Below, in pieces: positions 15,682 through 52,381 of a stretch of DNA of 64,000 nt. This DNA comes from Eledone cirrhosa. Lineage: Eukaryota. The stretch covers positions 95,914,001-95,978,000 of the forward strand of contig OZ024740.1 in the NCBI GenBank assembly GCA_964016885.1. The letters are read 5' to 3'. Numbering within the stretch: the stretch's first letter is position 1; each line of letters begins with the position of its first letter. A model generated the notes under the pieces. That model saw nothing but the letters and a program-made list of their open reading frames with translations. It had not been told where the DNA came from and did no database searches. The position numbers and the translations under genes are program-made.

Positions 15682-15685
<4 letters not shown>
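14335..15685 (+). mobile_element. Non-coding element with PLE-type layout: inverted copy (14335-14953) + ~645-bp monomer with ~90-bp terminal direct repeat and ~40-nt tail
   Basis: The left arm is the reverse complement of the right arm; gat(t/c)actgatgaaggactaa...ccacgcagcacgtttattct occurs at ~14974 and ~15618; (TA)n flanks. Confidence 0.75.
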
Positions 15686-15744
<59 letters not shown>

Positions 15745-15766
15745 TATTTATATATGTATATATTTA

Positions 15767-15871
<105 letters not shown>

Positions 15872-15914
15872 ATATATGTGTATATATGTATGTATATAAA
15901 TATATATATATAAG

Positions 15915-16038
15915 TTGAAAAAAATGAAAACGAAATTTCATTTCTCACTCTTAAGATGGCACTTACTTAAATGTAAGTATGTATGTATACGTACATACAT
16001 ATATGTATACAGACGTACAGTAGCATGCATATATATAC

Positions 16039-16073
<35 letters not shown>

Positions 16074-16300
16074 CATATATATATACACATATGCATACAG
16101 GTACACATACATATATGCACGCATCAGTTTAGCCGACGTTTATTATAACGCCTGCTTTGTTCGTTTGTTTGTCAACAAATCGAACAGCCTGAATTTATGC
16201 CATACGGTGTTAAGGCAACCACGTCACCTTTTTGTTCAACACTGACACAGGAACGATGTACTAGTTTCAAGCTTGTTAGCTATCATCAGCACCGTTTACC
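15915..16300 (-). mobile_element. Family B dispersed retrozyme-like copy, HHR at 16254-16294
   Basis: Minus strand cggtg-CTGATGA-tagc-taacaa-gctt-GAAA-ctag-TA-catcg; motif order is colinear with the satellite unit. Confidence 0.8.
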
Positions 16301-16304
16301 CATC

Positions 16305-17700
16305 AGCAAGAGTAAATGGTATTGACTACATTTCTATAAAATATGTTATTATATCTATGATTTTGGGGAAACATTTTCTTCCTACATTAGTTTTAACAAT
16401 CAGATAAAAGGGGGGGGGGGGGGCGTAAACCAAATAATTTTTCTTTTCCTCTTATTGCGTTTAGTGTTAGAGAGAAGATTAGGTAAATAGTTAATATGTT
16501 CGGCGAAATCGCTGTTATTGAGGGCCTTATTATAATCACTACAGAAGGAGATAAGGTAGAAATTCTACGGCTAATGTTAGGAATAAGATTTGTAATGACT
16601 ATAGGTGGATGGCAAGACACTTTGTGTATATATCTTAAATTCTCGTTAGGTTTATGATAAGGTTTAAAAGAGGCAGTAAGTAGATCAAGAAAGTTAGTAT
16701 TAGTAAGATTCGTATCTATAGTCATTTTAAGGTTTAGGATACCAAAGGTATTGATTAAATCTTTACGGAATTTATCAAGGTTATGGTCGTTGGTGGTATG
16801 AGAAAATGTCAAACCGTCGTCTCGGTATAAACCGATATGATGGAACGGAAATTTCTCTTTAAGGGTGTGGAGGAGGAATAATCCTACTAAGTCACACACA
16901 TCAGCACTATCATATGAGCCCATCGCAACATCAACAGATTTATGAGGGCTTGATTTTATAACCCAAATACTTTCATTAGCACAGAGTACTGTTTCCTAGC
17001 ATGAAGATAATGTCTTATTCTAATTTAGAATTATTAATGAAAGGTCTTGCAAAATCTAAGGCTTTTGTTAATAAGGATTCAGTGATAGAGGGGTAAAAAT
17101 CAACAATATCAAATAGGGTAGAACTACACTTATTTTTTCCTTGTATTTTCTTAAACCAAGACATAACAGAGGATATATTTAACCATTGTGATAAGTCAGT
17201 CATAATTCTTATTTGAAGTATAATTATTCTTGAGATTTTTTTACTCGGAAGGCCAACTAAAGGTTTAGCAAGGTTAATTAGTCTACAGCTAGGTCGATTA
17301 GTAAAGTCTTGTTTATGGTCTTTAAGGGTAATATATTTTTTACGTTTAGTTAGTGTTTCAATCTGGTTATCTATTTTTAAAATACTAGCTAGGTTTTTAG
17401 TTTCATTATTAATGGTATTGTAGATATTAATGTTAGCTATTTGATATTTGGCGGTACGGCTATTTGTTTAAAGTTGGTTATACGAAATATTATTTACTTC
17501 AAAAAGATGTTTAGTTTATCAGAAAAAACGAAAGCGTTAATAGAGTGTTTAAAATTAGAAATATCGTTAGAGAGTTTTCAGTGAAAATTATTGTGGGAAA
17601 TACGGTATTTAATTTCACTAATTAAGTTAACTAGGTCTATTTCGAAGTTGCCCATGTCTTTAACTCTAGTTGGGTATTTGTGGGATTTAATGTCAAAATA
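16305..17700 (-). pseudogene. Degenerate PLE reverse transcriptase (YRDD type)
   Basis: FDIVDFYPSI, MGSYDSADVCDLVG, LYRDDGL, NFLD, PYHKPN..L.YI...SCHP, in broken frames. Confidence 0.88.
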
Positions 17701-18055
17701 GTGATTGGAATCAGCACAGAATTGTCCGTCGTAAATAATTGCCTTCCATTTCATTCTTTCAATGACTTGTTAAATTTTATCGATAAACAATTTGATTTAC
17801 GTATGGGTTTTTGTATGCGTGTGTTGATTTCTTATTACGTGCGTGCGAACGCACGCATTTCTATACGTATGCACGTATGTTATGAACCCTGGCTCTTTAT
17901 TGTAGACTTTTATGTGTAGGTATGTGGATGTGTGTGTAATATGGTTATATGCATGTTTATATATACGTGTGTAGGCACGTGGTTGTGTATGTGTATAATT
18001 ATTTTTGCTCGCATGTATCTGTATGTGCACGTATGTTTATTTTATCTTGTTTGTG

Positions 18056-18086
<31 letters not shown>

Positions 18087-18752
18087 GCATATGTGTGTGT
18101 GTGTTTATACGTGTGTATCATTATATGTGCTTGTATATGTGTGTGTGCGTGTGTATGTATGTATGTGTATATGTTTATATATATATATATATATATATGT
18201 ATACGCACATCTCGTGTATTTGTTTATTTTAAAGTTGTGTTAACGTTTAACCCCTCCCTCCACACACTCATACTTATCGTTGTCAACACGTCTCTTGTTT
18301 GTCTTTATTTCGTTTTTGACTTGGTATATTGTTTGTGTTTATTTATTTATTATTTCTTGTAAATATATGTGTATGTATTTATGTGCCTGTCTTTAGACGC
18401 TAGTGCTCTTATGTGAAAAAGTATACGTCGTTGTACTTTTTAAGTATATGCGCGTGGTTTAGTGTGTGTATGTTTAAGTTCTGAATAGTTATTGTTTATA
18501 TATATATATATATATTTCCCCTCTTCTTTTCGCCCGTTTTTTTTCTAAGCCACAAATCCATATTTAATAAAAACACCATGTTGTTTATTCAGTCTCACGA
18601 CTGAAAACAGTTATAATACATACTTTCAAGAAACCACTGGTAAATGAAATAATTATCTTATGTTGTTTATTAAATAACTAATACGCTCTGTAGCATATAT
18701 CGAGCACTCGTTTTTACTTTACCTTTCCGACGGAATTACTTCATTCATAAAT

Positions 18753-18791
<39 letters not shown>

Positions 18792-18795
<4 letters not shown>

Positions 18796-19600
18796 GTAAG
18801 TATATATGTATACGTACACACATATATGTATACAGACGTACAGTGGTATGTATATATATTTATACATGCATGCACACATACATATACGCCCAGCCGACTA
18901 ACTCAATCGATGTGCAAATTAGGCTGCTCAGCGGTTAATATGCATAAGGAAAATATATAATTTCAGACGTTCAACCATCTGACAGAAAAGCATACGATGC
19001 TGACGATAGCGAATAAGCTTGAAACTAGTACATCGTTCCTTTGTCAGTGTTGAGCAAAATGGTGACGATGGTTGCCCGAACAATGTACGGCGTATTTCGG
19101 GCTGTTTGTTTATGCTTTTCTGTCAGATGGTTGAATGTCTGAAAGTATATATTTTCCTTATGCATATTAACAGCTGAGCAGCCTAATTTGCATATCGATT
19201 GAGTTAGTCGGCCGGGTGCACAGAAACAAATAAATGGAAACGAATGAAACGAAATTTCAATTCTCACTCTTAGTACGGCTGGTACTTAAATGTAATTATG
19301 TATGTATACCTTCATACATATATGTATACAGACGTACAGTAGTTTGTATATATACAAATACATGCACAAATATCTATATGTATTTATGGGTTTACCGAAC
19401 AGTATATACTTTCAGACGTTCAACCAATCTGACAGTAAGGTATACGATGCTGACGATAGCTAATAAGCTTGAAACAAGTACATCGTTTCTCTGTCAGTTT
19501 TGAGCAAAAAGGTGACGATGGTTGCCTGAACAGTGTACCGCGTAATTCGGGCTGTTGTTAACAAACAAACCGAGCATTATAATAAATATTCGGTAAACAC
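18792..19600 (+). mobile_element. Rearranged family B cluster, HHRs at 18995-19035 and 19445-19485, with internal inversions
   Basis: cgatg-CTGACGA-tagc...gctt-GAAA-ctag(caag)-TA-catcg twice; 18888-18994 is inverted at ~19112-19219. Confidence 0.8.
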
Positions 19601-19609
19601 ATACGTACA

Positions 19610-20082
19610 TGTATATAATATATATATAATATATATATAATATATATATAATATATATATCATATATATATAATATATATATAATATATATATAATATAT
19701 ATATAATATATATATAATATATATATAATATATATATAATATAAACCCATACGTATATGTATATAATATATATATAATATATATGTATATAATCTATATA
19801 TAATATGCTGTCTTCAGCATGTATATGTGAAGGTATGTATATTTCCTATGATAATTTGTAATATTTTTACTTAGATCTATATGATATAAATGCCAATACA
19901 CATATACATCGGAGAAACGATAGTAAAATGATGAATAATTTAATATAAGGAACTTGTTATATGTTTTTATTTCATTGTTTTATTAATTTATCTTGAATGC
20001 ATCATCTCTTTTCATGATATTTGGATTACATCGTGTTCTTCATACGGATTGGACACTACCGCATATTTTGGTAGATTTATCT

Positions 20083-28309: not shown

Positions 28310-28345
<36 letters not shown>

Positions 28346-28350
<5 letters not shown>

Positions 28351-31300
28351 CAAATAACGAAACGAAATTAATTTCGTTTCGTTTGTAACTCACTTTGTAT
28401 GACTGACGCTTAAACAATTAAGTTAAAAATGTACATCCATATATGTATACTGAAATACTAGTATGCATATGAATACACACACGTATACATATGTAGATGT
28501 ACCAAGTCTTTCACTGGTTACTTTACTGTGAGTATCCAGCTATTCTGTATGTAAACACACAGACAAACCGGTTTTTAGAGTCATACTGGTTTTTGAGGAA
28601 ACACCTTTCCACTATTCTCCAGAAAGCCAGACAAGGAATATTGAACTAGTTTCGTTGTTGTTACAACTCATCAGCAATATTTACCTATCTACCGGCCTTT
28701 CTGGAGAATCGTAAAAGCACATATCGTTATATGCTTTTTCTATGAAAATTAGTAGTGGGCAGACTAATTTGCATAGAGTGTGAGTACGTACCGATTCAAC
28801 GGAGACGATAAAAACAAATAACGAAACGAAATTAAATTTCGTTTCGTTTGTAACTCACTCTTGTATGACTGACGCTTAAACAATTAAGTTAAAAATGTAC
28901 ATCCATATATGTATACTGAAATACTAGTATGCATATGAATACACACACGTATACATATGTAGATGTACCAAGTCTTTCACTGGTTACTTTACTGTGAGTA
29001 TCCAGCTATTCTGTATGTAAACACACAGACAAACCGGTTTTTAGAGTCATACTGGTTTTTGAGGAAACACCTTTCCACTATTCTCCAGAAAGCCAGACAA
29101 GGAATAATGAACTAGTTTCGTTGTTGTTACAACTCATCAGCAATATTTACCTATCTACCGGCCTTTCTGGAGAATCGTAAAAGCACATATCGTTATATGC
29201 TTTTTCTATGAAAATTAGTAGTGGGCAGACTAATTTGCATAGAGTGTGAGTACGTACCGGTTCAACGGAGACGATAAAAACAAATAACGAAACGAAATTA
29301 AATTTCGTTTCGTTTGTAACTCACTTTGTATGACTGACGCTTAAACAATTAAGTTAAAAATGTACATCCATATATGTATACTGAAATACTAGTATGCATA
29401 TGAATACACACACGTATACATATGTAGATGTACCAAGTCTTTCACTGGTTACTTTACTGTGAGTATCCAGCTATTCTGTATGTAAACACACAGACAAACC
29501 GGTTTTTAGAGTCATACTGGTTTTTGAGGAAACACCTTTCCACTATTCTCCAGAAAGCCAGACAAGGAATATTGAACTAGTTTCGTTGTTGTTACAACTC
29601 ATCAGCAATATTTACCTATCTACCGGCCTTTCTGGAGAATCGTAAAAGCACATATCGTTATATGCTTTTTCTATGAAAATTAGTAGTGGGCAGACTAATT
29701 TGCATAGAGTGTGAGTACGTGCCGGTTCAACGGAGACGATAAAAACAAATAACGAAACGAAATTAAATTTCGTTTCGTTTGTAACTCACTTTTGTATGAC
29801 TGATGCTTAAACAATTAAGTTAAAAATGTACATCCATATATGTATACTGAAATACTAGTATGCATATGAATACACACACGTATACATATGTAGATGTACC
29901 AAGTCTTTCACTGGTTACTTTACTGTGAGTATCCAGCTATTCTGTATGTAAACACACAGACAAACCGGTTTTTAGAGTCATACTGGTTTTTGAGGAAACA
30001 CCTTTCCTCTATTCTCCAGAAAGCCAGACAAAGAATATTGAACTAGTTTCGTTGTTGTTACAACTCATCAGCAATATTTACCTATCTACCGGCCTTTCTG
30101 GAGAATCGTAAAAGCACATAACGTTATATGCTTTTTCTATGAAAATTAGTAGTGGGCAGACTAATTTGCATAGAGTGTGAGTACGTACCGGTTCAAAGGA
30201 GATGATAAAGACAAATAACGATACGAAATTAAATTTCGTTTCGTTTGTAACTCACTTTTGTATGACTGACGCGTAAACAATTAAGTTAAAAATGTACATC
30301 CATATATGTATACTGAAATACTAGTATGCATATGAATACACACACGTATACATATGTAGATGTACCAAGTCTTTCACTGGTTACTTTACTGTGAGTATCC
30401 AGCTATTCTGTATGTAAATACACAGACAAACCGGTTTTTAGAGTCATACTGGTTTTTGAGGAAACACCTTTCCTCTAATCTACAGAAAGCCAGACAAGGA
30501 ATATTGAACTAGTTTCGTTGTTGTTACAACTCATCAGCAATATTTACCTATCTACCGGCCTTTCTGGAGAATCGTAATAGCACACATCGTTATATGCTTT
30601 TTCTATGAAAATTAGTAGTGGGCAGACTAATTTGCATAGAGTGTGAGTACGTACCGGTTCAACGGAGACGATAAAAACAAATAACGAAACGAAATTAAAT
30701 TTCGTTTTGTTTGTAACTCACTTTTGTATGACTGACGCTTAAACAATTAAGTTAAAAATGTACATCCATATATGTATACTGAGATACTAGTATGCATATG
30801 AATACACACACGTATAGATATGTAGATGTACCAAGTCTTTCACTGGTTACTTTACTGTGAGTATCCAGCTATTCTGTATGTAAACACACAGACAAACCGG
30901 TTTTTAGAGTCATACTGGTTTTTGAGGAAACACATTTCCTCTATTCTCCAGAAAGCCAGACAAGGAATATTGAACTAGTTTCGTTGTTGTTACAACTCAT
31001 CAGCAATATTTACCTATCTACCGGCCTTTCTGGAGAATCGTAAAGCACATATCGTTATATGCTTTTTCTATGAAAATTAGTAGTGGGCAGACTAATTTGC
31101 ATAGAGTGTGAGTACGTACCGGTTCAACGGAGACGATAAAAACAAATAACGAAACGAAATTAATTTTCGTTTCGTTTGTAACTCACTTTTGTATGACTGA
31201 CGCTTAAACAATTAAGTTAAAAATGTACATCCATATATGTATACTGAAATACAAGTATGCATATGAATACACGCACGTATAGATATGTAGATGTACCAAG

Positions 31301-34300
31301 TCTTTCACTGGTTACTTTACTGTGAGTATCCAGCTATTCTGTATGTAAACACACAGACAAACCGGTTTTTAGAGTCATACTGGTTTTTGAGGAAACACCT
31401 TTCCTCTATTCTCTAGAAAGCCAGACAAGGAATATTGAACTAGTTTCGTTGTTGTTACAACTCATCAGCAATATTTACCTATCTACCGGCCTTTCTGGAG
31501 AATCGTAAAAGCACATATCGTTATATGCTTTTTCTATGAAAATTAGTAGTGGGCAAACTAATTTGCATAGAGTGTGAGTATGTACCGGTTCAACGGAGAC
31601 GATAAAAACAAATAACGAAACGAAATTAAATTTCGTTTCGTTTGTAACTCACTTTTGTATGACTGACGCTTAAACAATTAAGTTAAAAATGTACATCCAT
31701 ATATGTATACTGAAATACTAGTATGCATATGAATACACACATGTATACATATGTAGATGTACCAAGTCTTTCACTGGTTACTTTACTGTGAGTATCCAGC
31801 TATTCTGTATGTAAACACACAGGCAAACCGGTTTTTAGAGTCATTCTGGTTTTTGAGGAAACACCTTTCCTCTATTCTCCAGAAAGCCAGACAAAGAATA
31901 TTGAACTAGTTTCGTTGTTGTTACAACTCATCAGCAATATTTACCTATCTACCGGCCTTTCTGGAGAATCGTAAAAGCACATATCGTTATATGCTTTTTC
32001 TATGAAAATTAGTAGTGGGCAGACTAATTTGCATAGAGTGTGAGTACGTACCGGTTCAACGGAGACGATAAAGACAAATAACGATACGAAATTAAATTTC
32101 GTTTCGTTTGTAACTCACTTTTGTATGACTGACGCGTAAACAATTAAGTTAAAAATGTACATCCATATATGTATACTGAAATACTAGTATGCATATGAAT
32201 ACACACACGTATACATATGTAGATGTACCAAGTCTTTCACTGGTTACTTTACTGTGAGTATCCAGCTATTCTGTATGTAAACACACAGACAAACCGGTTT
32301 TTAGAGTCATACTGGTTTTTGAGGAAACACCTTTCCACTATTCTACAGAAAGCCAGACAAGGAATATTGAACTAGTTTCGTTGTTGTTACAACTCATCAG
32401 CAATATTTACCTATCTACCGGCCTTTCTGGAGAATCGTAAAAGCACATATCGTTATATGCTTTTTCTATGAAAATTAGTAGTGGGCAGACTAATTTGCAT
32501 AGAGTGTGAGTACGTACCGGTTCAACGGAGACGATAAAAACAAATAACGAAACGAAATTAAATTTCGTTTCGTTTGTAACTCACTTTTGTATGACTGACG
32601 CTTAAACAATTAAGTTAAAAATGTACATCCATATATGTATACTGAAATACTAGTATGCATATGAATACACACACGTATACATATGTAGATGTACCAAGTC
32701 TTTCACTGGTTACTTTACTGTGAGTATCCAGCTATTCTGTATGTAAACACACAGACAAACCGGTTTTTAGAGTCATACTGGTTTTTGAGGAAACACCTTT
32801 CCTCTATTCTCTTGAAAGCCAGACAAGGAATATTGAACTAGTTTCGTTGTTGTTACAACTCATCAGCAATATTTACCTATCTACCGGCCTTTCTGGAGAA
32901 TCGTAAAAGCACATATCGTTATATGCTTTTTCTATGAAAATTAGTAGTGGGCAGACTAATTTGCATAGAGTGTGAGTACGTACCGGTTCAACGGAGACGA
33001 TAAAAACAAATAACGAAACGAAATTAAATTTCGTTTTGTTTGTAACTCACTTTTGTATGACTGACGCTTAAACAATTAAGTTAAAAATGTACATCCATAT
33101 ATGTATACTGAGATACTAGTATGCATATGAATACACACACGTATAGATATGTAGATGTACCAAGTCTTCCACTGGTTACTTTACTGTGAGTATCCAGCTA
33201 TTCTGTATGTAAACACACAGACAAACCGGTTTTTAGAGTCATACTGGTTTTTGAGGAAACACATTTCCTCTATTCTCCAGAAAGCCAGACAAGGAATATT
33301 GAACTAGTTTCGTTGTTGTTACAACTCATCAGCAATATTTACCTATCTACCGGCCTTTCTGGAGAATCGTAAAAGCACATATCGTTATATGCTTTTTATA
33401 TGAAAATTAGTAGTGGGCAGACTAATTTGCATAGAGTGTGAGTACGTACCGGTTCAACGGAGACGATAAAAACAAATAACGAAACGAAATTAAATTTCGT
33501 TTTGTTTGTAACTCACTTTTGTATGACTGACGCTTAAACAATTAAGTTAAAAATGTACATCCATATATGTATACTGAAATACTAGTATGCATATGAATAC
33601 ACACACGTATACATATGTAGATGTACCAAGTCTTTCACTGGTTACTTTACTGTGAGTATCCAGCTATTCTGTATGTAAACACACAGACAAACCGGTTTTT
33701 AGAGTCATACTGGTTTTTGAGGAAACACATTTCCTCTATTTTTCCAGAAAGCCAGACAAGGAATATTGAACTAGTTTCGTTGTTGTTACAACTCATCAGC
33801 AATATTTACCTATCTACCGGCCTTTCTGGAGAATCGTAAAAGCACATAACGTTATATGCTTTTTCTATGAAAATTAGTAGTGGGCAGACTAATTTGCATA
33901 GAGTGTGAGTACGTACCGGTTCAAAGGAGATGATAAAGACAAATAACGATACGAAATTAAATTTCGTTTCGTTTGTAACTCACTTTTGTATGACTGACGC
34001 GTAAACAATTAAGTTAAAAATGTACATCCATATATGTATACTGAAATACTAGTATGCATATGAATACACACACGTATACATATGTAGATGTACCAAGTCT
34101 TTCACTGGTTACTTTACTGTGAGTATCCAGCTATTCTGTATGTAAATACACAGACAAACCGGTTTTTAGAGTCATACTGGTTTTGAGGAAACACCTTTCC
34201 TCTAATCTACAGAAAGCCAGACAAGGAATATTGAACTAGTTTCGTTGTTGTTACAACTCATCAGCAATATTTACCTATCTACCGGCCTTTCTGGAGAATC

Positions 34301-37300
34301 GTAATAGCACACATCGTTATATGCTTTTTCTATGAAAATTAGTAGTGGGCAGACTAATTTGCATAGAGTGTGAGTACGTACCGGTTCAACGGAGACGATA
34401 AAAACAAATAACGAAACGAAATTAAATTTCGTTTTGTTTGTAACTCACTTTTGTATGACTGACGCTTAAACAATTAAGTTAAAAATGTACATCCATATAT
34501 GTATACTGAGATACTAGTATGCATATGAATACACACACGTATAGATATGTAGATGTACCAAGTCTTTCACTGGTTACTTTACTGTGAGTATCCAGCTATT
34601 CTGTATGTAAACACACAGACAAACCGGTTTTTAGAGTCATACTGGTTTTTGAGGAAACACATTTCCTCTATTCTCCAGAAAGCCAGACAAGGAATATTGA
34701 ACTACTTTCGTTGTTGTTACAACTCATCAGCAATATTTACCTATCTACCGGCCTTTCTGGAGAATCGTAAAGCACATATCGTTATATGCTTTTTCTATGA
34801 AAATTAGTAGTGGGCAGACTAATTTGCATAGAGTGTGAGTACGTACCGGTTCAACGGAGACGATAAAAACAAATAACGAAACGAAATTAATTTTCGTTTC
34901 GTTTGTAACTCACTTTTGTATGACTGACGCTTAAACAATTAAGTTAAAAATGTACATCCATATATGTATACTGAAATACAAGTATGCATATGAATACACA
35001 CACGTATAGATATGTAGATGTACCAAGTCTTTCACTGGTTACTTTACTGTGAGTATCCAGCTATTCTGTATGTAAACACACAGACAAACCGGTTTTTAGA
35101 GTCATACTGGTTTTTGAGGAAACACCTTTCCTCTATTCTCTAGAAAGCCAGACAAGGAATATTGAACTAGTTTCGTTGTTGTTACAACTCATCAGCAATA
35201 TTTACCTATCTACCGGCCTTTCTGGAGAATCGTAAAAGCACATATCGTTATATGCTTTTTCTATGAAAATTAGTAGTGGGCAAACTAATTTGCATAGAGT
35301 GTGAGTATGTACCGGTTCAACGGAGACGATAAAAACAAATAACGAAACGAAATTAAATTTCGTTTCGTTTGTAACTCACTTTTGTATGACTGACGCTTAA
35401 ACAATTAAGTTAAAAATGTACATCCATATATGTATACTGAAATACTAGTATGCATATGAATACACACATGTATACATATGTAGATGTACCAAGTCTTTCA
35501 CTGGTTACTTTACTGTGAGTATCCAGCTATTCTGTATGTAAACACACAGGCAAACCGGTTTTTAGAGTCATTCTGGTTTTTGAGGAAACACCTTTCCTCT
35601 ATTCTCCAGAAAGCCAGACAAAGAATATTGAACTAGTTTCGTTGTTGTTACAACTCATCAGCAATATTTACCTATCTACCGGCCTTTCTGGAGAATCGTA
35701 AAAGCACATATCGTTATATGCTTTTTCTATGAAAATTAGTAGTGGGCAGACTAATTTGCATAGAGTGTGAGTACGTACCGGTTCAACGGAGACGATAAAG
35801 ACAAATAACGATACGAAATTAAATTTCGTTTCGTTTGTAACTCACTTTTGTATGACTGACGCGTAAACAATTAAGTTAAAAATGTACATCCATATATGTA
35901 TACTGAAATACTAGTATGCATATGAATACACACACGTATACATATGTAGATGTAGCAAGTCTTTCACTGGTTACTTTACTGTGAGTATCCAGCTATTCTG
36001 TATGTAAACACACAGACAAACCGGTTTTTAGAGTCATACTGGTTTTTGAGGAAACACCTTTCCACTATTCTACAGAAAGCCAGACAAGGAATATTGAACT
36101 AGTTTCGTTGTTGTTACAACTCATCAGCAATATTTACCTATCTACCGGCCTTTCTGGAGAATCGTAAAAGCACATATCGTTATATGCTTTTTCTATGAAA
36201 ATTAGTAGTGGGCAGACTAATTTGCATAGAGTGTGAGTACGTACCGGTTCAACGGAGACGATAAAAACAAATAACGAAACGAAATTAAATTTCGTTTCGT
36301 TTGTAACTCACTTTTGTATGACTGACGCTTAAACAATTAAGTTAAAAATGTACATCCATATATGTATACTGAAATACTAGTATGCATATGAATACACACA
36401 CGTATACATATGTAGATGTACCAAGTCTTTCACTGGTTACTTTACTGTGAGTATCCAGCTATTCTGTATGTAAACACACAGACAAACCGGTTTTTAGAGT
36501 CATACTGGTTTTTGAGGAAACACCTTTCCTCTATTCTCTTGAAAGCCAGACAAGGAATATTGAACTAGTTTCGTTGTTGTTACAACTCATCAGCAATATT
36601 TACCTATCTACCGGCCTTTCTGGAGAATCGTAAAAGCACATATCGTTATATGCTTTTTCTATGAAAATTAGTAGTGGGCAGACTAATTTGCATAGAGTGT
36701 GAGTACGTACCGGTTCAACGGAGACGATAAAAACAAATAACGAAACGAAATTAAATTTCGTTTTGTTTGTAACTCACTTTTGTATGACTGACGCTTAAAC
36801 AATTAAGTTAAAAATGTACATCCATATATGTATACTGAGATACTAGTATGCATATGAATACACACACGTATAGATATGTAGATGTACCAAGTCTTTCACT
36901 GGTTACTTTACTGTGAGTATCCAGCTATTCTGTATGTAAACACACAGACAAACCGGTTTTTAGAGTCATACTGGTTTTTGAGGAAACACATTTCCTCTAT
37001 TCTCCAGAAAGCCAGACAAGGAATATTGAACTAGTTTCGTTGTTGTTACAACTCATCAGCAATATTTACCTATCTACCGGCCTTTCTGGAGAATCGTAAA
37101 AGCACATATCGTTATATGCTTTTTATATGAAAATTAGTAGTGGGCAGACTAATTTGCATAGAGTGTGAGTACGTACCGGTTCAACGGAGACGATAAAAAC
37201 AAATAACGAAACGAAATTAAATTTCGTTTTGTTTGTAACTCACTTTTGTATGACTGACGCTTAAACAATTAAGTTAAAAATGTACATCCATATATGTATA

Positions 37301-40300
37301 CTGAAATACTAGTATGCATATGAATACACACACGTATACATATGTAGATGTACCAAGACTTTCACTGGTTACTTTACTGTGAGTATCCAGCTATTCTGTA
37401 TGTAAACACACAGACAAACCGGTTTTTAGAGTCATACTGGTTTTTGAGGAAACACATTTCCTCTATTTTTCCAGAAAGCCAGACAAGGAATATTGAACTA
37501 GTTTCGTTGTTGTTACAACTCATCAGCAATATTTACCTATCTTGCGGCCTTTCTGGAGAATCGTAAAAGCACATATCGTTATATGCTTTTTCTATGAAAA
37601 TTAGTAGTGGGCAGACTAATTTGCATAGAGTGTGAGTACGTACCGGTTCAACGGAGACGATAAAAACAAATAACGAAACGAAATTAAATTTCGTTCTGTT
37701 TGTAACTCACTTTTGTATGACTGACGCTTAAACAATTAAGTTAAAAATGTACATCCATATATGTATACTGAAATACTAGTATGCATATGAATACACACAC
37801 GTATACATATGTAGATGTACCAAGTATTTCACTGGTTACTTTACTGTGAGTATCCAGCTATTCTGTATGTAAATACACAGACAAACCGGTTTTTAGAGTC
37901 ATACTGGTTTTTGAGGAAACACCTTTCCTCTATTCTCCAGAAAGCCAGACAAGGAATATTGAACTAGTTTCGTTGTTGTTACAACTCATCAGCAATATTT
38001 ACCTATCTACCGGCCTTTCTGGAGAATCGTAAAAGCACATATCGTTATATGCTTTTTCTATGAAAATTAGTAGTGGGCAGACTAATTTGCATAGAGTGTG
38101 AGTACGTACCGGTTCAACGGAGACGATAAAAACAAATAACGAAACGAAATTAATTTTCGTTTCGTTTGTAACTCACTTTTGTATGACTGACGCTTAAACA
38201 ATTAAGTTAAAAATGTACATCCATATATGTATACTGAAATACTAGTATGCATATGAATACACACATGTATACATATGTAGATGTACCAAGTCTTTCACTG
38301 GTTACTTTACTGTGAGTATCCAGCTATTCTGTATGTAAACACACAGGCAAACCGGTTTTTAGAGTCATACTGGTTTTTGAGGAAACACCTTTCCTCTATT
38401 CTCCAGAAAGCCAGACAAAGAATATTGAACTAGTTTCGTTGTTGTTACAACTCATCAGCAATATTTACCTATCTACCGGCCTTTCTGGAGAATCGTAAAA
38501 GCACATATCGTTATATGCTTTTTCTATGAAAATTAGTAGTGGGAAGACTAATTTGCATAGAGTGTGAGTACGTACCGGTTCAACGGAGACGATAAAAACA
38601 AATAACGAAACGAAATTAAATTTCGTTTCGTTTGTAACTCACTTTTGTATGACTGACGCTTAAACAATTAAGTTAAAAATGTACATCCATATATGTATAC
38701 TGAAATACTAGTATGCATATGAATACAGACACGTATACATATGTAGATGTACCAAGTCTTTCACTGGTTACTTTACTGTGAGTATCCAGCTATTCTGTAT
38801 GTAAACACACAGACAAACCGGTTTTTAGAGTCATACTGGTTTTTGAGGAAACACCTTTCCTCTATTCTCTAGAAAGCCAGACAAGGAATATTGAACTAGT
38901 TTCGTTGTTGTTACAACTCATCAGCAATATTTACCTATCTACCGGCCTTTCTGGAGAATCGTAAAAGCACATATCGTTATATGCTTTTTCTATGAAAATT
39001 AGTAGTGGGCAGACTAATTTGCATAGAGTGTGAGTACGTACCGGTTCAACGGAGACGATAAAAACAAATAACGAAACGAAATTAAATTTCGTTTCGTTTG
39101 TAACTCACTTTTGTATGACTGACGCTTAAACAATTAAGTTAAAAATGTACATCCATATATGTATACTGAAATACTAGTATGCATATGAATACACACACGT
39201 ATACATATGTAGATGTACCAAGTCTTTCACTGGTTACTTTACTGTGAGTATCCAGCTATTCTGTATGTAAACACACAGGCAAACCGGTTTTTAGAGTCAT
39301 ACTGGTTTTTGAGGAAACACCTTTCCTCTATTTTCCAGAAAGCCAGACAAGGAATATTGAACTAGTTTCGTTGTTGTTACAACTCATCAGCAATATTTAC
39401 CTATCTACCGGCCTTTCTGGAGAATCGTAACAGCACATATCGTTATATGCTTTTTCTATGAAAATTAGTAGTGGGCAGACTAATTTGCATAGAGTGTGAG
39501 TACGTACCGGTTCAACGAAGACGATAAAAACAAATAACGAAACGAAATTAAATTTCGTTTCGTTTGTAACTCACTTTTGTATGACTGACGCTTAAACAAT
39601 TAAGTTAAAAATGTACATCCATATATGTATACTGAAATACTAGTATGCATATGAATACACACACGTATACATATGTAGATGTACCAAGTCTTTCACTGGT
39701 TACTTTACTGTGAGTATCCAGCTATTCTGTATGTAAACACACAGACAAACCGGTTTTTAGAGTCATACTGGTTTTTGACGAAACACATTTCCTCTATTCT
39801 CCAGAAAGCCAGACAAGGAATATTGAACTAGTTTCGTTGTTGTTACAACTCATCAGCAATATTTACCTATCTACCGGCCTTTCTGGAGAATCGTAAAAGC
39901 ACATATCGTTATATGCTTTTTCTATGAAAATTAGTAGTGGGCAGACTAATTTGCATAGAGTGTGAGTATGTACCGGTTCAACGGAGACGATAAAAACAAA
40001 TAACGAAACGAAATTAAATTTCGTTCTGTTTGTAACTCACTTTTGTATGACTGACGCTTAAACAATTAAGTTAAAAATGTACATCCATATATGTATACTG
40101 AAATACTAGTATGCATATGAATACACACACGTATACATATGTAGATGTACCAAGTATTTCACTGGTTACTTTACTGTGAGTATCCAGCTATTCTGTATGT
40201 AAATACACAGACAAACCGGTTTTTAGAGTCATACTGGTTTTTGAGGAAACACCTTTCCTCTATTCTCTAGAAAGCCAGACAAGGAATATTGAACTAGTTT

Positions 40301-43300
40301 CGTTGTTGTTACAACTCATCAGCAATATTTACCTATCTACCGGCCTTTCTGGAGAATCGTAAAAGCACATATCGTTATATGCTTTTTCTATGAAAATTAG
40401 TAGTGGGCAGACTAATTTGCATAGAGTGTGAGTACGTACCGGTTCAACGGAGACGATAAAAACAAATAACGAAACGAAATTAAATTTCGTTTCGTTTGTA
40501 ACTCACTTTTGTATGACTGACGCTTAAACAATTAAGTTAAAAATGTACATCCATATATGTATACTGAAATACTAGTATGCATATGAATACACACACGTAT
40601 ACATATGTAGATGTACCAAGTCTTTCACTGGTTACTTTACTGTGAGTATCCAGCTATTCTGTATGTAAACACACAGGCAAACCGGTTTTTAGAGTCATAC
40701 TGGTTTTTGAGGAAACACCTTTCCTCTATTCTCCAGAAAGCCAGGCAAGGAATATTGAACTAGTTTCGTTGTTGTTACAACTCATCAGCAATATTTACCT
40801 ATCTACCGGCCTTTCTGGAGAATCGTAAAAGCACATATCGTTATATGCTTTTTCTATGAAAATTAGTAGTGGGCAGACTAATTTGCATAGAGTGTGAGTA
40901 TGTACCGGTTCAACGGAGACGATAAAAACAAATAACGAAACGAAATTAAATTTCGTTCTGTTTGTAACTCACTTTTGTATGACTGACGCTTAAACAATTA
41001 AGTTAAAAATGTACATCCATATATGTATACTGAAATACTAGTATGCATATGAATACACACACGTATACATATGTAGATGTACCAAGTATTTCACTGGTTA
41101 CTTTACTGTGAGTATCCAGCTATTCTGTATGTAAATACACAGACAAACCGGTTTTTAGAGTCATACTGGTTTTTGAGGAAACACCTTTCCTCTATTCTCC
41201 AGAAAGCCAGACAAGGAATATTGAACTAGTTTCGTTGTTGTTACAACTCATCAGCAATATTTACCTATCTACCGGCCTTTCTGGAGAATCGTAAAAGCAC
41301 ATATCGTTATATGCTTTTTCTATGAAAATTAGTAGTGGGCAGACTAATTTGCATAGAGTGTGAGTACGTACCGGTTCAACGGAGACGATAAAAACAAATA
41401 ACGAAACGAAATTAATTTTCGTTTCGTTTGTAACTCACTTTTGTATGACTGACGCTTAAACAATTAAGTTAAAAATGTACATCCATATATGTATACTGAA
41501 ATACTAGTATGCATATGAATACACACATGTATACATATGTAGATGTACCAAGTCTTTCACTGGTTACTTTACTGTGAGTATCCAGCTATTCTGTATGTAA
41601 ACACACAGGCAAACCGGTTTTTAGAGTCATACTGGTTTTTGAGGAAACACCTTTCCTCTATTCTCCAGAAAGCCAGACAAAGAATATTGAACTAGTTTCG
41701 TTGTTGTTACAACTCATCAGCAATATTTACCTATCTACCGGCCTTTCTGGAGAATCGTAAAAGCACATATCGTTATATGCTTTTTCTATGAAAATTAGTA
41801 GTGGGAAGACTAATTTGCATAGAGTGTGAGTACGTACCGGTTCAACGGAGACGATAAAAACAAATAACGAAACGAAATTAAATTTCGTTTCGTTTGTAAC
41901 TCACTTTTGTATGACTGACGCTTAAACAATTAAGTTAAAAATGTACATCCATATATGTATACTGAAATACTAGTATGCATATGAATACAGACACGTATAC
42001 ATATGTAGATGTACCAAGTCTTTCACTGGTTACTTTACTGTGAGTATCCAGCTATTCTGTATGTAAACACACAGACAAACCGGTTTTTAGAGTCATACTG
42101 GTTTTTGAGGAAACACCTTTCCTCTATTCTCTAGAAAGCCAGACAAGGAATATTGAACTAGTTTCGTTGTTGTTACAACTCATCAGCAATATTTACCTAT
42201 CTACCGGCCTTTCTGGAGAATCGTAAAAGCACATATCGTTATATGCTTTTTCTATGAAAATTAGTAGTGGGCAGACTAATTTGCATAGAGTGTGAGTACG
42301 TACCGGTTCAACGGAGACGATAAAAACAAATAACGAAACGAAATTAAATTTCGTTTCGTTTGTAACTCACTTTTGTATGACTGACGCTTAAACAATTAAG
42401 TTAAAAATGTACATCCATATATGTATACTGAAATACTAGTATGCATATGAATACACACACGTATACATATGTAGATGTACCAAGTCTTTCACTGGTTACT
42501 TTACTGTGAGTATCCAGCTATTCTGTATGTAAACACACAGGCAAACCGGTTTTTAGAGTCATACTGGTTTTTGAGGAAACACCTTTCCTCTATTTTCCAG
42601 AAAGCCAGACAAGGAATATTGAACTAGTTTCGTTGTTGTTACAACTCATCAGCAATATTTACCTATCTACCGGCCTTTCTGGAGAATCGTAACAGCACAT
42701 ATCGTTATATGCTTTTTCTATGAAAATTAGTAGTGGGCAGACTAATTTGCATAGAGTGTGAGTACGTACCGGTTCAACGAAGACGATAAAAACAAATAAC
42801 GAAACGAAATTAAATTTCGTTTCGTTTGTAACTCACTTTTGTATGACTGACGCTTAAACAATTAAGTTAAAAATGTACATCCATATATGTATACTGAAAT
42901 ACTAGTATGCATATGAATACACACACGTATACATATGTAGATGTACCAAGTCTTTCACTGGTTACTTTACTGTGAGTATCCAGCTATTCTGTATGTAAAC
43001 ACACAGACAAACCGGTTTTTAGAGTCATACTGGTTTTTGACGAAACACATTTCCTCTATTCTCCAGAAAGCCAGACAAGGAATATTGAACTAGTTTCGTT
43101 GTTGTTACAACTCATCAGCAATATTTACCTATCTACCGGCCTTTCTGGAGAATCGTAAAAGCACATATCGTTATATGCTTTTTCTATGAAAATTAGTAGT
43201 GGGCAGACTAATTTGCATAGAGTGTGAGTATGTACCGGTTCAACGGAGACGATAAAAACAAATAACGAAACGAAATTAAATTTCGTTCTGTTTGTAACTC

Positions 43301-46300
43301 ACTTTTGTATGACTGACGCTTAAACAATTAAGTTAAAAATGTACATCCATATATGTATACTGAAATACTAGTATGCATATGAATACACACACGTATACAT
43401 ATGTAGATGTACCAAGTATTTCACTGGTTACTTTACTGTGAGTATCCAGCTATTCTGTATGTAAATACACAGACAAACCGGTTTTTAGAGTCATACTGGT
43501 TTTTGAGGAAACACCTTTCCTCTATTCTCTAGAAAGCCAGACAAGGAATATTGAACTAGTTTCGTTGTTGTTACAACTCATCAGCAATATTTACCTATCT
43601 ACCGGCCTTTCTGGAGAATCGTAAAAGCACATATCGTTATATGCTTTTTCTATGAAAATTAGTAGTGGGCAGACTAATTTGCATAGAGTGTGAGTACGTA
43701 CCGGTTCAACGGAGACGATAAAAACAAATAACGAAACGAAATTAAATTTCGTTTCGTTTGTAACTCACTTTTGTATGACTGACGCTTAAACAATTAAGTT
43801 AAAAATGTACATCCATATATGTATACTGAAATACTAGTATGCATATGAATACACACACGTATACATATGTAGATGTACCAAGTCTTTCACTGGTTACTTT
43901 ACTGTGAGTATCCAGCTATTCTGTATGTAAACACACAGGCAAACCGGTTTTTAGAGTCATACTGGTTTTTGAGGAAACACCTTTCCTCTATTCTCCAGAA
44001 AGCCAGGCAAGGAATATTGAACTAGTTTCGTTGTTGTTACAACTCATCAGCAATATTTACCTATCTACCGGCCTTTCTGGAGAATCGTAAAAGCACATAT
44101 CGTTATATGCTTTTTCTATGAAAATTAGTAGTGGGCAGACTAATTTGCATAGAGTGTGAGTATGTACCGGTTCAACGGAGACGATAAAAACAAATAACGA
44201 AACGAAATTAAATTTCGTTCTGTTTGTAACTCACTTTTGTATGACTGACGCTTAAACAATTAAGTTAAAAATGTACATCCATATATGTATACTGAAATAC
44301 TAGTATGCATATGAATACACACACGTATACATATGTAGATGTACCAAGTATTTCACTGGTTACTTTACTGTGAGTATCCAGCTATTCTGTATGTAAATAC
44401 ACAGACAAACCGGTTTTTAGAGTCATACTGGTTTTTGAGGAAACACCTTTCCTCTATTCTCCAGAAAGCCAGACAAGGAATATTGAACTAGTTTCGTTGT
44501 TGTTACAACTCATCAGCAATATTTACCTATCTACCGGCCTTTCTGGAGAATCGTAAAAGCACATATCGTTATATGCTTTTTCTATGAAAATTAGTAGTGG
44601 GCAGACTAATTTGCATAGAGTGTGAGTACGTACCGGTTCAACGGAGACGATAAAAACAAATAACGAAACGAAATTAATTTTCGTTTCGTTTGTAACTCAC
44701 TTTTGTATGACTGACGCTTAAACAATTAAGTTAAAAATGTACATCCATATATGTATACTGAAATACTAGTATGCATATGAATACACACATGTATACATAT
44801 GTAGATGTACCAAGTCTTTCACTGGTTACTTTACTGTGAGTATCCAGCTATTCTGTATGTAAACACACAGGCAAACCGGTTTTTAGAGTCATACTGGTTT
44901 TTGAGGAAACACCTTTCCTCTATTCTCCAGAAAGCCAGACAAAGAATATTGAACTAGTTTCGTTGTTGTTACAACTCATCAGCAATATTTACCTATCTAC
45001 CGGCCTTTCTGGAGAATCGTAAAAGCACATATCGTTATATGCTTTTTCTATGAAAATTAGTAGTGGGCAGACTAATTTGCATAGAGTGTGAGTACGTACC
45101 GGTTCAACGGAGACGATAAAAACAAATAACGAAACGAAATTAAATTTCGTTTCGTTTGTAACTCACTTTTGTATGACTGACGCTTAAACAATTAAGTTAA
45201 AAATGTACATCCATATATGTATACTGAAATACTAGTATGCATATGAATACACACACGTATACATATGTAGATGTACCAAGTCTTTCACTGGTTACTTTAC
45301 TGTGAGTATCCAGCTATTCTGTATGTAAACACACAGGCAAACCGGTTTTTAGAGTCATACTGGTTTTTGAGGAAACACCTTTCCTCTATTCTTCAGAAAG
45401 CCAGACAAGGAATATTGAACTAGTTTCGTTGTTGTTACAACTCATCAGCAATATTTACCTATCTACCGGCCTTTCTGGAGAATCGTAACAGCACATATCG
45501 TTATATGCTTTTTCTATGAAAATTAGTAGTGGGCAGACTAATTTGCATAGAGTGTGAGTACGTACCGGTTCAACGAAGACGATAAAAACAAATAACGAAA
45601 CGAAATTAAATTTCGTTTCGTTTGTAACTCACTTTTGTATGACTGACGCTTAAACAATTAAGTTAAAAATGTACATCCATATATGTATACTGAAATACTA
45701 GTATGCATATGAATACACACACGTATACATATGTAGATGTACCAAGTCTTTCACTGGTTACTTTACTGTGAGTATCCAGCTATTCTGTATGTAAACACAC
45801 AGACAAACCGGTTTTTAGAGTCATACTGGTTTTTGAGGAAACACATTTCCTCTATTCTCCAGAAAGCCAGACAAGGAATATTGAACTAGTTTCGTTGTTG
45901 TTACAACTCATCAGCAATATTTACCTATCTACCGGCCTTTCTGGAGAATCGTAAAAGCACATATCGTTATATGCTTTTTCTATGAAAATTAGTAGTGGGC
46001 AGACTAATTTGCATAGAGTGTGAGTATGTACCGGTTCAACGGAGACGATAAAAACAAATAACGAAACGAAATTAAATTTCGTTTCGTTTGTAACTCACTT
46101 TTGTATGACTGACGCTTAAACAATTAAGTTAAAAATGTACATCCATATATGTATACTGAAATACTAGTATGCATATGAATACACACACGTATACATATGT
46201 AGATGTACCAAGTATTTCACTGGTTACTTTACTGTGAGTATCCAGCTATTCTGTATGTAAATACACAGACAAACCGGTTTTTAGAGTCATACTGGTTTTT

Positions 46301-49300
46301 GAGGAAACACCTTTCCTCTATTCTCTAGAAAGCCAGACAAGGAATATTGAACTAGTTTCGTTGTTGTTACAACTCATCAGCAATATTTACCTATCTACCG
46401 GCCTTTCTGGAGAATCGTAAAAGCACATATCGTTATATGCTTTTTCTATGAAAATTAGTAGTGGGCAGACTAATTTGCATAGAGTGTGAGTACGTACCGG
46501 TTCAACGGAGACGATAAAAACAAATAACGAAACGAAATTAATTTTCGTTTCGTTTGTAACTCACTTTTGTATGACTGACGCTTAAACAATTAAGTTAAAA
46601 ATGTACATCCATATATGTATACTGAAATACTAGTATGCATATGAATACACACATGTATACATATGTAGATGTACCAAGTCTTTCACTGGTTACTTTACTG
46701 TGAGTATCCAGCTATTCTGTATGTAAACACACAGGCAAACCGGTTTTTAGAGTCATACTGGTTTTTGAGGAAACACCTTTCCTCTATTCTCTAGAAAGCC
46801 AGACAAGGAATATTGAACTAGTTTCGTTGTTGTTACAACTCATCAGCAATATTTACCTATCTACCGGCCTTTCTGGAGAATCGTAAAAGCACATATCGTT
46901 ATATGCTTTTTCTATGAAAATTAGTAGTGGGCAGACTAATTTGCATAGAGTGTGAGTATGTACCGGTTCAACGGAGACGATAAAAACAAATAACGAAACG
47001 AAATTAAATTTCGTTCTGTTTGTAACTCACTTTTGTATGACTGACGCTTAAACAATTAAGTTAAAAATGTACATCCATATATGTATACTGAAATACTAGT
47101 ATGCATATGAATACACACACGTATACATATGTAGATGTACCAAGTATTTCACTGGTTACTTTACTGTGAGTATCCAGCTATTCTGTATGTAAATACACAG
47201 ACAAACCGGTTTTTAGAGTCATACTGGTTTTTGAGGAAACACCTTTCCTCTATTCTCCAGAAAGCCAGACAAGGAATATTGAACTAGTTTCGTTGTTGTT
47301 ACAACTCATCAGCAATATTTACCTATCTACCGGCCTTTCTGGAGAATCGTAAAAGCACATATCGTTATATGCTTTTTCTATGAAAATTAGTAGTGGGCAG
47401 ACTAATTTGCATAGAGTGTGAGTACGTACCGGTTCAACGGAGACGATAAAAACAAATAACGAAACGAAATTAATTTTCGTTTCGTTTGTAACTCACTTTT
47501 GTATGACTGACGCTTAAACAATTAAGTTAAAAATGTACATCCATATATGTATACTGAAATACTAGTATGCATATGAATACACACATGTATACATATGTAG
47601 ATGTACCAAGTCTTTCACTGGTTACTTTACTGTGAGTATCCAGCTATTCTGTATGTAAACACACAGGCAAACCGGTTTTTAGAGTCATACTGGTTTTTGA
47701 GGAAACACCTTTCCTCTATTCTCCAGAAAGCCAGACAAAGAATATTGAACTAGTTTCGTTGTTGTTACAACTCATCAGCAATATTTACCTATCTACCGGC
47801 CTTTCTGGAGAATCGTAAAAGCACATATCGTTATATGCTTTTTCTATGAAAATTAGTAGTGGGCAGACTAATTTGCATAGAGTGTGAGTACGTACCGGTT
47901 CAACGGAGACGATAAAAACAAATAACGAAACGAAATTAAATTTCGTTTCGTTTGTAACTCACTTTTGTATGACTGACGCTTAAACAATTAAGTTAAAAAT
48001 GTACATCCATATATGTATACTGAAATACTAGTATGCATATGAATACACACACGTATACATATGTAGATGTACCAAGTCTTTCACTGGTTACTTTACTGTG
48101 AGTATCCAGCTATTCTGTATGTAAACACACAGGCAAACCGGTTTTTAGAGTCATACTGGTTTTTGAGGAAACACCTTTCCTCTATTCTCCAGAAAGCCAG
48201 ACAAGGAATATTGAACTAGTTTCGTTGTTGTTACAACTCATCAGCAATATTTACCTATCTACCGGCCTTTCTGGAGAATCGTAACAGCACATATCGTTAT
48301 ATGCTTTTTCTATGAAAATTAGTAGTGGGCAGACTAATTTGCATAGAGTGTGAGTACGTACCGGTTCAACGAAGACGATAAAAACAAATAACGAAACGAA
48401 ATTAAATTTCGTTTCGTTTGTAACTCACTTTTGTATGACTGACGCTTAAACAATTAAGTTAAAAATGTACATCCATATATGTATACTGAAATACTAGTAT
48501 GCATATGAATACACACACGTATACATATGTAGATGTACCAAGTCTTTCACTGGTTACTTTACTGTGAGTATCCAGCTATTCTGTATGTAAACACACAGAC
48601 AAACCGGTTTTTAGAGTCATACTGGTTTTTGAGGAAACACATTTCCTCTATTCTCCAGAAAGCCAGACAAGGAATATTGAACTAGTTTCGTTGTTGTTAC
48701 AACTCATCAGCAATATTTACCTATCTACCGGCCTTTCTGGAGAATCGTAAAAGCACATATCGTTATATGCTTTTTCTATGAAAATTAGTAGTGGGCAGAC
48801 TAATTTGCATAGAGTGTGAGTATGTACCGGTTCAACGGAGACGATAAAAACAAATAACGAAACGAAATTAAATTTCGTTCTGTTTGTAACTCACTTTTGT
48901 ATGACTGACGCTTAAACAATTAAGTTAAAAATGTACATCCATATATGTATACTGAAATACTAGTATGCATATGAATACACACACGTATACATATGTAGAT
49001 GTACCAAGTATTTCACTGGTTACTTTACTGTGAGTATCCAGCTATTCTGTATGTAAATACACAGACAAACCGGTTTTTAGAGTCATACTGGTTTTTGAGG
49101 AAACACCTTTCCTCTATTCTCTAGAAAGCCAGACAAGGAATATTGAACTAGTTTCGTTGTTGTTACAACTCATCAGCAATATTTACCTATCTACCGGCCT
49201 TTCTGGAGAATCGTAAAAGCACATATCGTTATATGCTTTTTCTATGAAAATTAGTAGTGGGCAGACTAATTTGCATAGAGTGTGAGTACGTACCGGTTCA

Positions 49301-52309: not shown

Positions 52310-52381
52310 ATATGTATATATAATATATATATATATATCATATATATATTTATATATATATATATATAATATATATCATAA

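Follow-up and report, generated by a model that had tools for sequence, protein, structure and literature searches.

The window considered here, a 64,000-nucleotide (nt) stretch of the Eledone cirrhosa genome (GCA_964016885.1, contig OZ024740.1, positions 95,914,001 to 95,978,000), contains two kinds of repeat with a type I hammerhead ribozyme motif (HHR), namely a 466-bp satellite (Sat) and a family, here called B, whose copies lie at 15915-19600. We describe the 466-bp satellite and family B, which divides into the subfamilies B1 and B2, as diverged, homologous, apparently non-coding units of about 436-470 bases, which most likely are animal retrozymes without long terminal repeats (non-LTR retrozymes), an identification that we regard as highly probable from their sequences. 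As retrozymes, the units would be transcribed, those in arrays as multimers, and the ribozyme would cut out each unit, probably as a dimer through the palindrome ACUAGU that stands in place of stem III. The resulting monomers would be ligated into circles, and a Penelope-like reverse transcriptase (RT) with its endonuclease would copy the unit RNA into (TA)n tracts that have been nicked, with priming at either of two AUUUA-like sites, and would sometimes round the template several times and proceed from both sides of the break.

The satellite forms a tandem array at 28344-51471, in which Tandem Repeats Finder (TRF) counts 49.6 units that are 98% alike, and three HHR copies of a kind other than the satellite's, one on the minus strand and two on the plus strand, lie within 15915-19600. 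An earlier note on this DNA had reported these copies, with motifs in the same order as in the satellite unit and with HHR cores, and all were recovered from the sequence where it had placed them. It had treated the copies at both loci as one family; they are indeed related, but by their sequences they form two subfamilies that are 82% alike, B1 (15910-16311) with the core CTGATGA TAGC TAACAA GCTT in window copy 1, and B2 (18791-19692) with the core CTGACGA TAGC TAATAA GCTT in window copies 2 and 3. Likewise, what had been read as one copy at 18792-19600 does contain the B repeat, but the locus, at 18791-19692, consists of four segments of alternating orientation. The unit period is 436 bp in B2, 466 bp in B1 and Sat, and 470 bp in S2, a fourth family found at locus L085, which lies 266 kb left of the window (L085/L086, C1:95.648 Mb). 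These units are AT-rich (GC content 34-38%), arranged in tandem and devoid of LTRs, and each carries a type I hammerhead; stop-to-stop reading frames that overlap the B copies reach only 72-99 amino acids and are of low complexity.

The relationship between B and the satellite was examined by comparing the natural B2 unit of locus L015 (436 bp, between two predicted cleavage sites) with one 466-bp satellite unit, after the HHR and the start of stem I had been cut away. The global alignment score was 160, compared with a mean of 10.2 (standard deviation 5.1, maximum 32) for 300 dinucleotide shuffles, giving z = 29, and the reverse-complemented and reversed controls scored 17 and 19. Outside the HHR, 239 of 330 aligned columns were identical, and blastn reported E = 1.5e-15 over 224 columns. 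In a five-way MAFFT alignment, B1, B2, Sat and S2 share collinear blocks along the whole unit, with pairwise identities of 82% (B1-B2), 59% (B-Sat) and 89% (Sat-S2). Judged by these alignments, B and the 466-bp satellite are homologous over the whole unit, beyond the HHR core, and the earlier description of B as a diverged relative of the satellite holds. It could be argued instead that the two share only a swapped-in ribozyme module and are otherwise unrelated, so that the supposed compensatory changes would compare non-homologous ribozymes. Such modules do sit in unrelated or very diverged bodies, as in family C (310 bp; L005 and L044), which has the same HHR architecture and is only 43-52% alike outside it; near background as this is, C was rejected as a member of the same unit family. 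For B and the satellite, we consider a swapped module extremely improbable, given that B2 and the satellite remain collinear when the HHR is removed, that the block order is the same over the whole unit, and that the sites of their 3' ends (see below) are homologous as well.

The core elements CUGANGA, GAAA and the triplet ending in U-H are present in all three B copies of the window and in the satellite units, with the predicted self-cleavage site at GAAACUAGU(A/U)/C; the canonical B form is ACGAUG CUGACGA UAGC UAAUAA GCUU GAAA CUAGU A/CAUCGU. Around this common core, the stems differ by matched changes. Stem I passes from tattg/caata in the satellite to cgatg/catcg in B with its pairing kept, just as the earlier note had claimed: in B2 the G-C and U-A pairs beside the core are retained, and the next three change from A-U to U-A, from G-C to A-U and from C-G to U-A. 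For stem II, a change from gttg/caac to agc/gct had been proposed, and both the change and the pairing stand (A-U to U-A, G-C to U-A and C-G to G-C in B2), but the stem has not simply become shorter, since its closing pair, G-C in the satellite, is U.U in B. Altogether, six pairs, three in each stem, are altered on both sides and still paired when the B2 sequence of locus L002 is set against the satellite HHR at 51002-51048.

Covariation was then assessed over all matches to CTGANGA-N14-GAAACNNGT in the window and the collected loci, a pattern that fixes only the core and its spacing and yielded 64 distinct 47-nt sequences. Across this set, 81.8% of the stem cells were paired, against 65.9% in shuffles; 145 cells had changed on both sides and were still paired, against 58.9 in shuffles and 14-34 in controls with slid partners; and the covariation score was 0.465, against 0.184 in shuffles and at most 0.147 when partners were slid by 1-3 columns. 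None of the 500 shuffles reached the observed value in any of these three comparisons. These counts refer to sequences rather than to independent events, and the slid controls, together with a run on one representative per 85% cluster, guard against the effect of relatedness; in the latter (15 sequences, probable chance matches included) the score was 0.489 against 0.220 (0/500), with slid controls not exceeding 0.168. RNAalifold, applied to 19 sequences with 27 nt added at either side, predicted stems I and II as well as the distal helix of a long stem I, and 14 of the 19 predicted pairs, including ones in distal stem I, survive a double change in at least one sequence. The minimum-energy folds also comprise a long stem I and stem II (z = -5.0 for the satellite and -2.1 for B2), in which the extended part of stem I is formed by CUGACAGA/UUUGUCAG in B2 and by a 13-bp distal helix in the satellite; the extended stem I to which the earlier note had pointed is seen in these folds. 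The 13 columns that are invariant in the 64 HHRs are all letters fixed by the search pattern itself, whereas loop II columns 21, 22 and 25 and columns 45-46 in the 3' strand of stem I are unconstrained by it and yet at least 90% conserved. Matched double mutations of this kind in the stems make it likely that selection acts, or has acted, on the RNA fold, as in the animal retrozymes described so far, and this agrees with what had been suggested from the first inspection. Both a significant alignment outside the HHR core and significant covariation were thus found, the two points on which the earlier note had staked its proposal.

Two features set many of these hammerheads apart. First, the 10.1/11.1 pair is non-standard in 47 of the 64 HHRs, being U.U in B1, B2 and C, A.A in D and C.A in B4, while Sat and S2 keep the standard G10.1-C11.1 pair. 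Second, helix III is not closed within one molecule, as its pairing is limited to A15.1-U16.1 and C15.2-G16.2, with 2 nt between them. Stem III, six bases in all, is a palindrome (ACUAGU, ACAUGU or ACGCGU), and the centre of the palindrome covaries, being UA in 42 sequences, AU in 15, GC in one and unpaired in five. Since stem III is merely a palindrome, the ribozyme probably acts as a dimer formed through it. When two HHR copies were cofolded, the dimers obtained were generic, domain-swapped ones and lay just 2.7-3.4 kcal/mol below two monomers.

Genome-wide, exact B2 cores number 10,575 (5524+5051) and exact satellite cores 5,212 (2742+2470), neither with any match in the reversed-pattern control, and a looser pattern that covers B1 and near variants found 14,364 matches (7335+7029; control 3, 1+2). 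Locus and orientation tallies were counted by hand from the first 100 matches listed per pattern. On this count, the exact B2 cores listed fall into 80 loci, 64 of which have a single exact core, and the exact satellite cores listed fall into 28 loci, of which nine are single and others form arrays of up to 21 units. Dispersed and satellite members, both predicted earlier, therefore do exist, but the distinction is one of degree and not of kind, as the satellite family is itself dispersed. The B2 unit is also present, in many variants, in contigs from the sequencing runs X1, X4 and X5, where joints at which a contig "goes back 420/434" can be explained by tandem DNA. A few contigs from run X5, which is labelled as a second organism, are 90-99% like the B2 unit, and the B family may be shared with a related species.

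The wider superfamily envisaged at the outset is also apparent. Families B1, B2, B3/B4, Sat, S2 and D have flanks in common, and C and E share the HHR architecture; by its sequence we place B, with its two subfamilies, among the animal non-LTR retrozymes as an additional member, and in this genome it forms one branch of a large superfamily. Besides S2 and C, the further HHR families comprise D (L064, L073, L088) and E (L068, L071), which were found with a pattern that has 533+422 matches in the genome and 8+5 in the control. In family D, which is homologous to B in its flanks, stem II is AGGG/CCCA on an A.A base and stem III is ACAUGU, and family C combines stem III ACGCGU with U.U at the base of stem II. 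Within B2, one sub-lineage (L014:2764-2810, L072, L074, L078, L079) has changed a stem I pair from A-U to U.G (ACGTTG/CAGCGT) and, in three of five loci (L072, L074 and L014's neighbour L067), a stem II pair from A-U to G.U (TGGC/GCTT); these changes keep pairing within family B.

The ends of the copies suggest how they were inserted. When 29 B2 loci were mapped onto the natural unit, 33 arms of at least 250 nt remained once L016, a duplicate of L015, and an arm truncated at its locus border had been set aside. The 3' ends lie at unit positions 273-281 (...TTTCGTTTCATTCTTTTCCATTTAT) in 16 of the 33 arms, at 219-224 (...ACATTTA) in 12 and elsewhere in five, and 16 of the 18 ends near unit position 281 that were inspected adjoin at least 8 nt of alternating A/T. 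The 5' ends, in contrast to this, are widely spread, and arms extend to 2.6 units in B2 and to about 50 units in the satellite. The two satellite arms of the window end at unit positions 302 and 231, the counterparts of the two B2 sites in the alignment, and both adjoin (TA)n; the arms meet 5' to 5' near 51475-51479, and the whole 24-kb satellite block has the appearance of a single insertion with two arms in a microsatellite. Among the matches listed, a hand count of opposite-strand neighbouring HHRs within 1 kb gave 31 pairs in the order (-,+), of which 15 came from the looser B1 pattern, six from the exact B2 core and 10 from the exact satellite core, and none in the order (+,-); arms therefore always meet at their 5' ends. 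For Penelope-like elements, a bias towards (TA)n, partial tandems and an adjacent inverted, 5'-truncated copy have been described (Craig et al. 2021, PMC8557442). Insertion at (TA)n, tandem and inverted 5'-truncated copies, and a fixed 3' end, all features of elements mobilised by Penelope-like retrotransposons, are shared by B and the satellite, and from these footprints we infer a Penelope-like enzyme as the putative copier of the units.

A Penelope-like element in fact adjoins the B1 copy in the same sense. Its open reading frame (ORF) fragment at 16393-16995 has 52 homologues at E <= 0.001 (best 1.7e-46), and in two homologues (P0001 and P0006) RT motifs, and after them a cysteine motif at the C terminus and a GIY-YIG-like block, were read by eye, a reading on which we call the element Penelope-like. 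Pfam returned no match for the two RT ORF fragments or for three homologues, and precomputed labels (PF26215 and PF28514) exist for these Pfam-negative homologues. The family has at least 1405 first-look candidates in the genome. In 18 of 19 other loci, similarity to the window element stops at 16304-16307; past this junction, 18 copies share the element's own further sequence (350-950 nt of it in the seven copies checked, namely L093 and six aligned to L093), where the window has B1 instead. The 5' part of the window element reaches (TA)n at about 18749, but some 950 nt of its 3' coding part are missing and were not found elsewhere in the window. The B1::Penelope-like junction at 16304 is unique in the genome and lies in short imperfect homology (ACTCTTGCTG vs ACTATCTGGCAG), and the fused pair has (TA)n on both sides.

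Given such a junction, B units might be thought to be pseudo-LTRs of autonomous Penelope-like elements, that is, the terminal part of a coding transposon. The pseudo-LTRs of Penelope-like elements carry hammerheads, according to the account of Craig et al. (PMC8557442), and are described as closely related to retrozymes in the abstract of a preprint (10.64898/2026.07.22.740005), and the B1 copy of the window is joined to its neighbour in the same sense. Nevertheless, we hold this to be very unlikely: the 18 other copies of the element continue into their own coding 3' part and not into B1, no B-type or satellite-type HHR was found in the 19 loci of the element, and the junction does not recur. 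Conversely, only one of 89 B/Sat/D loci, L088, has a long stretch of the element, in the opposite sense, this comparison being with the one Penelope-like family. L088 was rejected as a second fusion, as the senses are opposite and the family D copy starts at its usual point; the two are probably mere neighbours.

If the B units are instead retrozymes, the fusion at 16304 may, quite tentatively, be regarded as a template-switch product of a single reverse-transcription event, in which B1 RNA was primed at (TA)n and synthesis jumped to Penelope-like mRNA. Template switching fits because an element complete at its 5' end and lacking its 3' part adjoins, in like orientation, the 3' part of a different retroelement with which it forms the fusion. 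The event would have begun with priming at the usual 3' site of B1 on a (TA)n nick, continued by reading through an uncleaved or re-ligated hammerhead site, and then jumped at the short imperfect homology onto the Penelope-like mRNA, which would have been copied to its 5' end. A later deletion is the alternative, and one case cannot decide between the two. If a template switch did occur, the locus would tie retrozyme RNA and Penelope mRNA to the same enzyme and, together with the shared 3' sites and head-to-head arms, would show how animal retrozymes are copied.

Several observations weigh against B and the satellite being retrozymes, and some of them favour the view that the HHR-like motifs are inert relics, B and the satellite being SINE-like (short interspersed nuclear element-like) or satellite repeats amplified at the DNA level, with stem matches due to chance or hitch-hiking. 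None of the Rfam hammerhead models matched the window at its gathering threshold: the satellite scores 38.6 bits on HH9, where 52 are needed, the HHR at 16253-16295, whose sequence is that of the commonest B1 core, reaches 18.5 bits on the same model (E 0.64), and B2 has no Rfam hammerhead match at E <= 10; in a permissive Rfam search of 15500-20000, microRNA models that match TA/TG repeats dominated. The U.U at the base of stem II and the minimal stem III also suit inert relics. The G10.1-C11.1 pair missing from B, C and D may mean a lower activity, and stem III, with 2 nt between C15.2 and G16.2, is unable to close as a monomer. Furthermore, copy 2 of the window has an altered loop II and copy 3 a broken palindrome, B2 loci mostly have a single HHR (64/80) and a lone copy is unable to release a unit, and an array of 50 units that are 98% alike could grow by unequal crossing-over. 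Covariation among families, moreover, is a record of past selection on master copies and does not speak for the activity of the copies in the window, and the link to Penelope-like elements rests on insertion footprints and one fusion.

We nevertheless judge inert relics an improbable explanation. Double changes that keep pairing are 2.5 times as frequent as in shuffles and more than four times as frequent as in any slid control, which also holds per cluster; the three loop II columns are at least 90% kept without being constrained by the search, though the flanks of the families are only about 59% alike; and the palindrome varies as UA, AU or GC. The 3' ends fixed at (TA)n, the scatter of the 5' ends and the strictly head-to-head arms (31:0) are in keeping with retrotransposition and not with growth at the DNA level.

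Metazoan non-LTR retrozymes are tandem repeats with type I HHRs and units of 150-450 bp (Cervera and de la Pena 2020, PMC7229834). The units described here resemble them in being AT-rich and tandem, with a type I HHR, no LTRs, many copies and several variants per genome; at 436-470 bp, however, they lie at or just above the size range quoted there, and whereas expression and circles were demonstrated for the metazoan retrozymes of that study, our units are known from genome sequence. The fixed 3' ends at (TA)n and the head-to-head arms seen here are not among the features described for metazoan retrozymes in the parts of that paper drawn on here. A parallel that it provides is the axolotl, in which two related repeat families of 330 and 350 bp each have their own HHR variant, HHR_Amex1 and HHR_Amex2, as do the families in the present genome. 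HHR_Amex2 has U.U at the base of helix II and is reported as active, HHR_Amex1 has a helix III of one pair, topped by a tetraloop that is palindromic, and both cleave much better in dimeric constructs (PMC7229834). Unlike the axolotl variants, B combines the U.U with the palindromic helix III, and the two families here differ by six compensated pairs. The host genome, at 3.0 Gb, is also unlike that of the axolotl.

As in the present repeats, helix III is very short and palindromic at its centre in the minimal hammerheads of Penelope-like elements and of newt satellite 2, which implies cleavage in dimers or tandem transcripts. Unlike in these systems, the motif here is located in an apparently non-coding unit of about 450 bases and not in the pseudo-LTR of a coding element, and a long stem I with internal loops is retained. 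With Penelope-like insertions as described by Craig et al. (2021, PMC8557442), our repeats have in common the preference for (TA)n, the partial tandems and the inverted 5'-truncated neighbouring copy, but the pattern was described there for coding elements, and here it is found on an apparently non-coding hammerhead repeat. Plant LTR retrozymes are non-autonomous hammerhead retroelements that propagate through circular RNA (PMC4918200); the likeness lies in their being non-autonomous hammerhead retroelements, and no LTRs are seen here.

This genome thus holds tens of thousands of related hammerhead units whose subfamilies differ by compensated pairs, a natural mutational series that includes unusual recurrent features, such as the non-standard 10.1/11.1 pair in most families and the palindrome replacing helix III. 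The 3' sites at (TA)n and the head-to-head arms shared by two distant families are testable marks of the copying enzyme of animal retrozymes, a matter not yet settled in the literature. In genome annotation, "satellite" and "dispersed repeat" would here denote one kind of mobile element.

The features of the window are listed in Table 1. The B1 copy has its 3' end at the usual site of the family and is truncated at its 5' end. In the B2 cluster, both outer ends are canonical. A 106-nt inverted repeat, 95% complementary, surrounds HHR copy 2 (left arm 18889-18994, right arm 19111-19216), because B2 segments 2 and 3 cover unit positions of about 293-400 in opposite sense.

Table 1. Repeats, ribozyme motifs and neighbouring elements of the window (positions within the 64,000 nt)
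Feature	Position	Strand	Remarks
(TA)n microsatellite	15684..15912	.	TRF; adjoins 3' end of B1 copy
B1 copy, less than one unit	15910..16311	-	B1 unit 414-466 then 1-310; 86% identity to the L048 B1 unit
B1 HHR, type I	16253-16295	-	ACGGTG CTGATGA TAGC TAACAA GCTT GAAA CTAGT A/CATCGT; predicted cleavage after the A complementary to base 16259
Penelope-like element	16304..18749 (upper limit approximate)	-	RT ORF fragments 16393-16995 and 17015-17467; same sense as adjoining B1
(TA)n between Penelope-like element and B2 cluster	18747..18790	.	TRF array 18747-18812
B2 segment 1	18791..18886	-	Unit 131-224, 90% identity; 3' end at second usual site, adjoins (TA)n
B2 segment 2	18887..19112	+	Unit 293-436 then 1-82, 92% identity; holds HHR 18995-19037
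B2 HHR copy 2	18995-19037	+	Loop II = GAATAA; predicted cleavage after 19031
B2 segment 3	19111..19401	-	Unit 108-400
B2 segment 4	19401..19692	+	Unit 358-436 then 1-210; HHR 19444-19486; ends in TA-rich array
B2 HHR copy 3	19444-19486	+	Stem III = CAAGT, palindrome broken
TA-rich array	19612-19806	.	B2 segment 4 ends in it
Satellite left arm	28344..51479	-	49.6 units, HHR in each; 3' end at unit 302, adjoins (TA)n 28313-28346
Satellite HHR	e.g. 28637-28681	-	AATATTG CTGATGA GTTG TAACAA CAAC GAAA CTAGT T/CAATATT
Satellite right arm	51475..52309	+	HHRs 51580-51626 and 52046-52092; 3' end at unit 231, adjoins (TA)n 52309-52376

A further block of the units, TATGCAAATTAG on the HHR-sense strand, occurs at 19183-19194 (+), at 18913-18924 (-) and in every satellite unit (e.g., 28766-28777). 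It contains the octamer ATGCAAAT and is identical in B1, B2, Sat and S2, with a near match, TATGCAAATGAG, in family D, and about 30 nt past it stands a TATA-like AAAG(T/C)ATATA. Block and TATA-like motif together could be a candidate internal promoter, although the conservation alone is not significant. Elsewhere in the window, a run of 14 G occupies 16412-16425, in the 3' part of the Penelope-like ORF fragment, and a tandem repeat of 91-93 bp is present in three copies, 90% alike, at 52915-53189, just past the right flank of the satellite.

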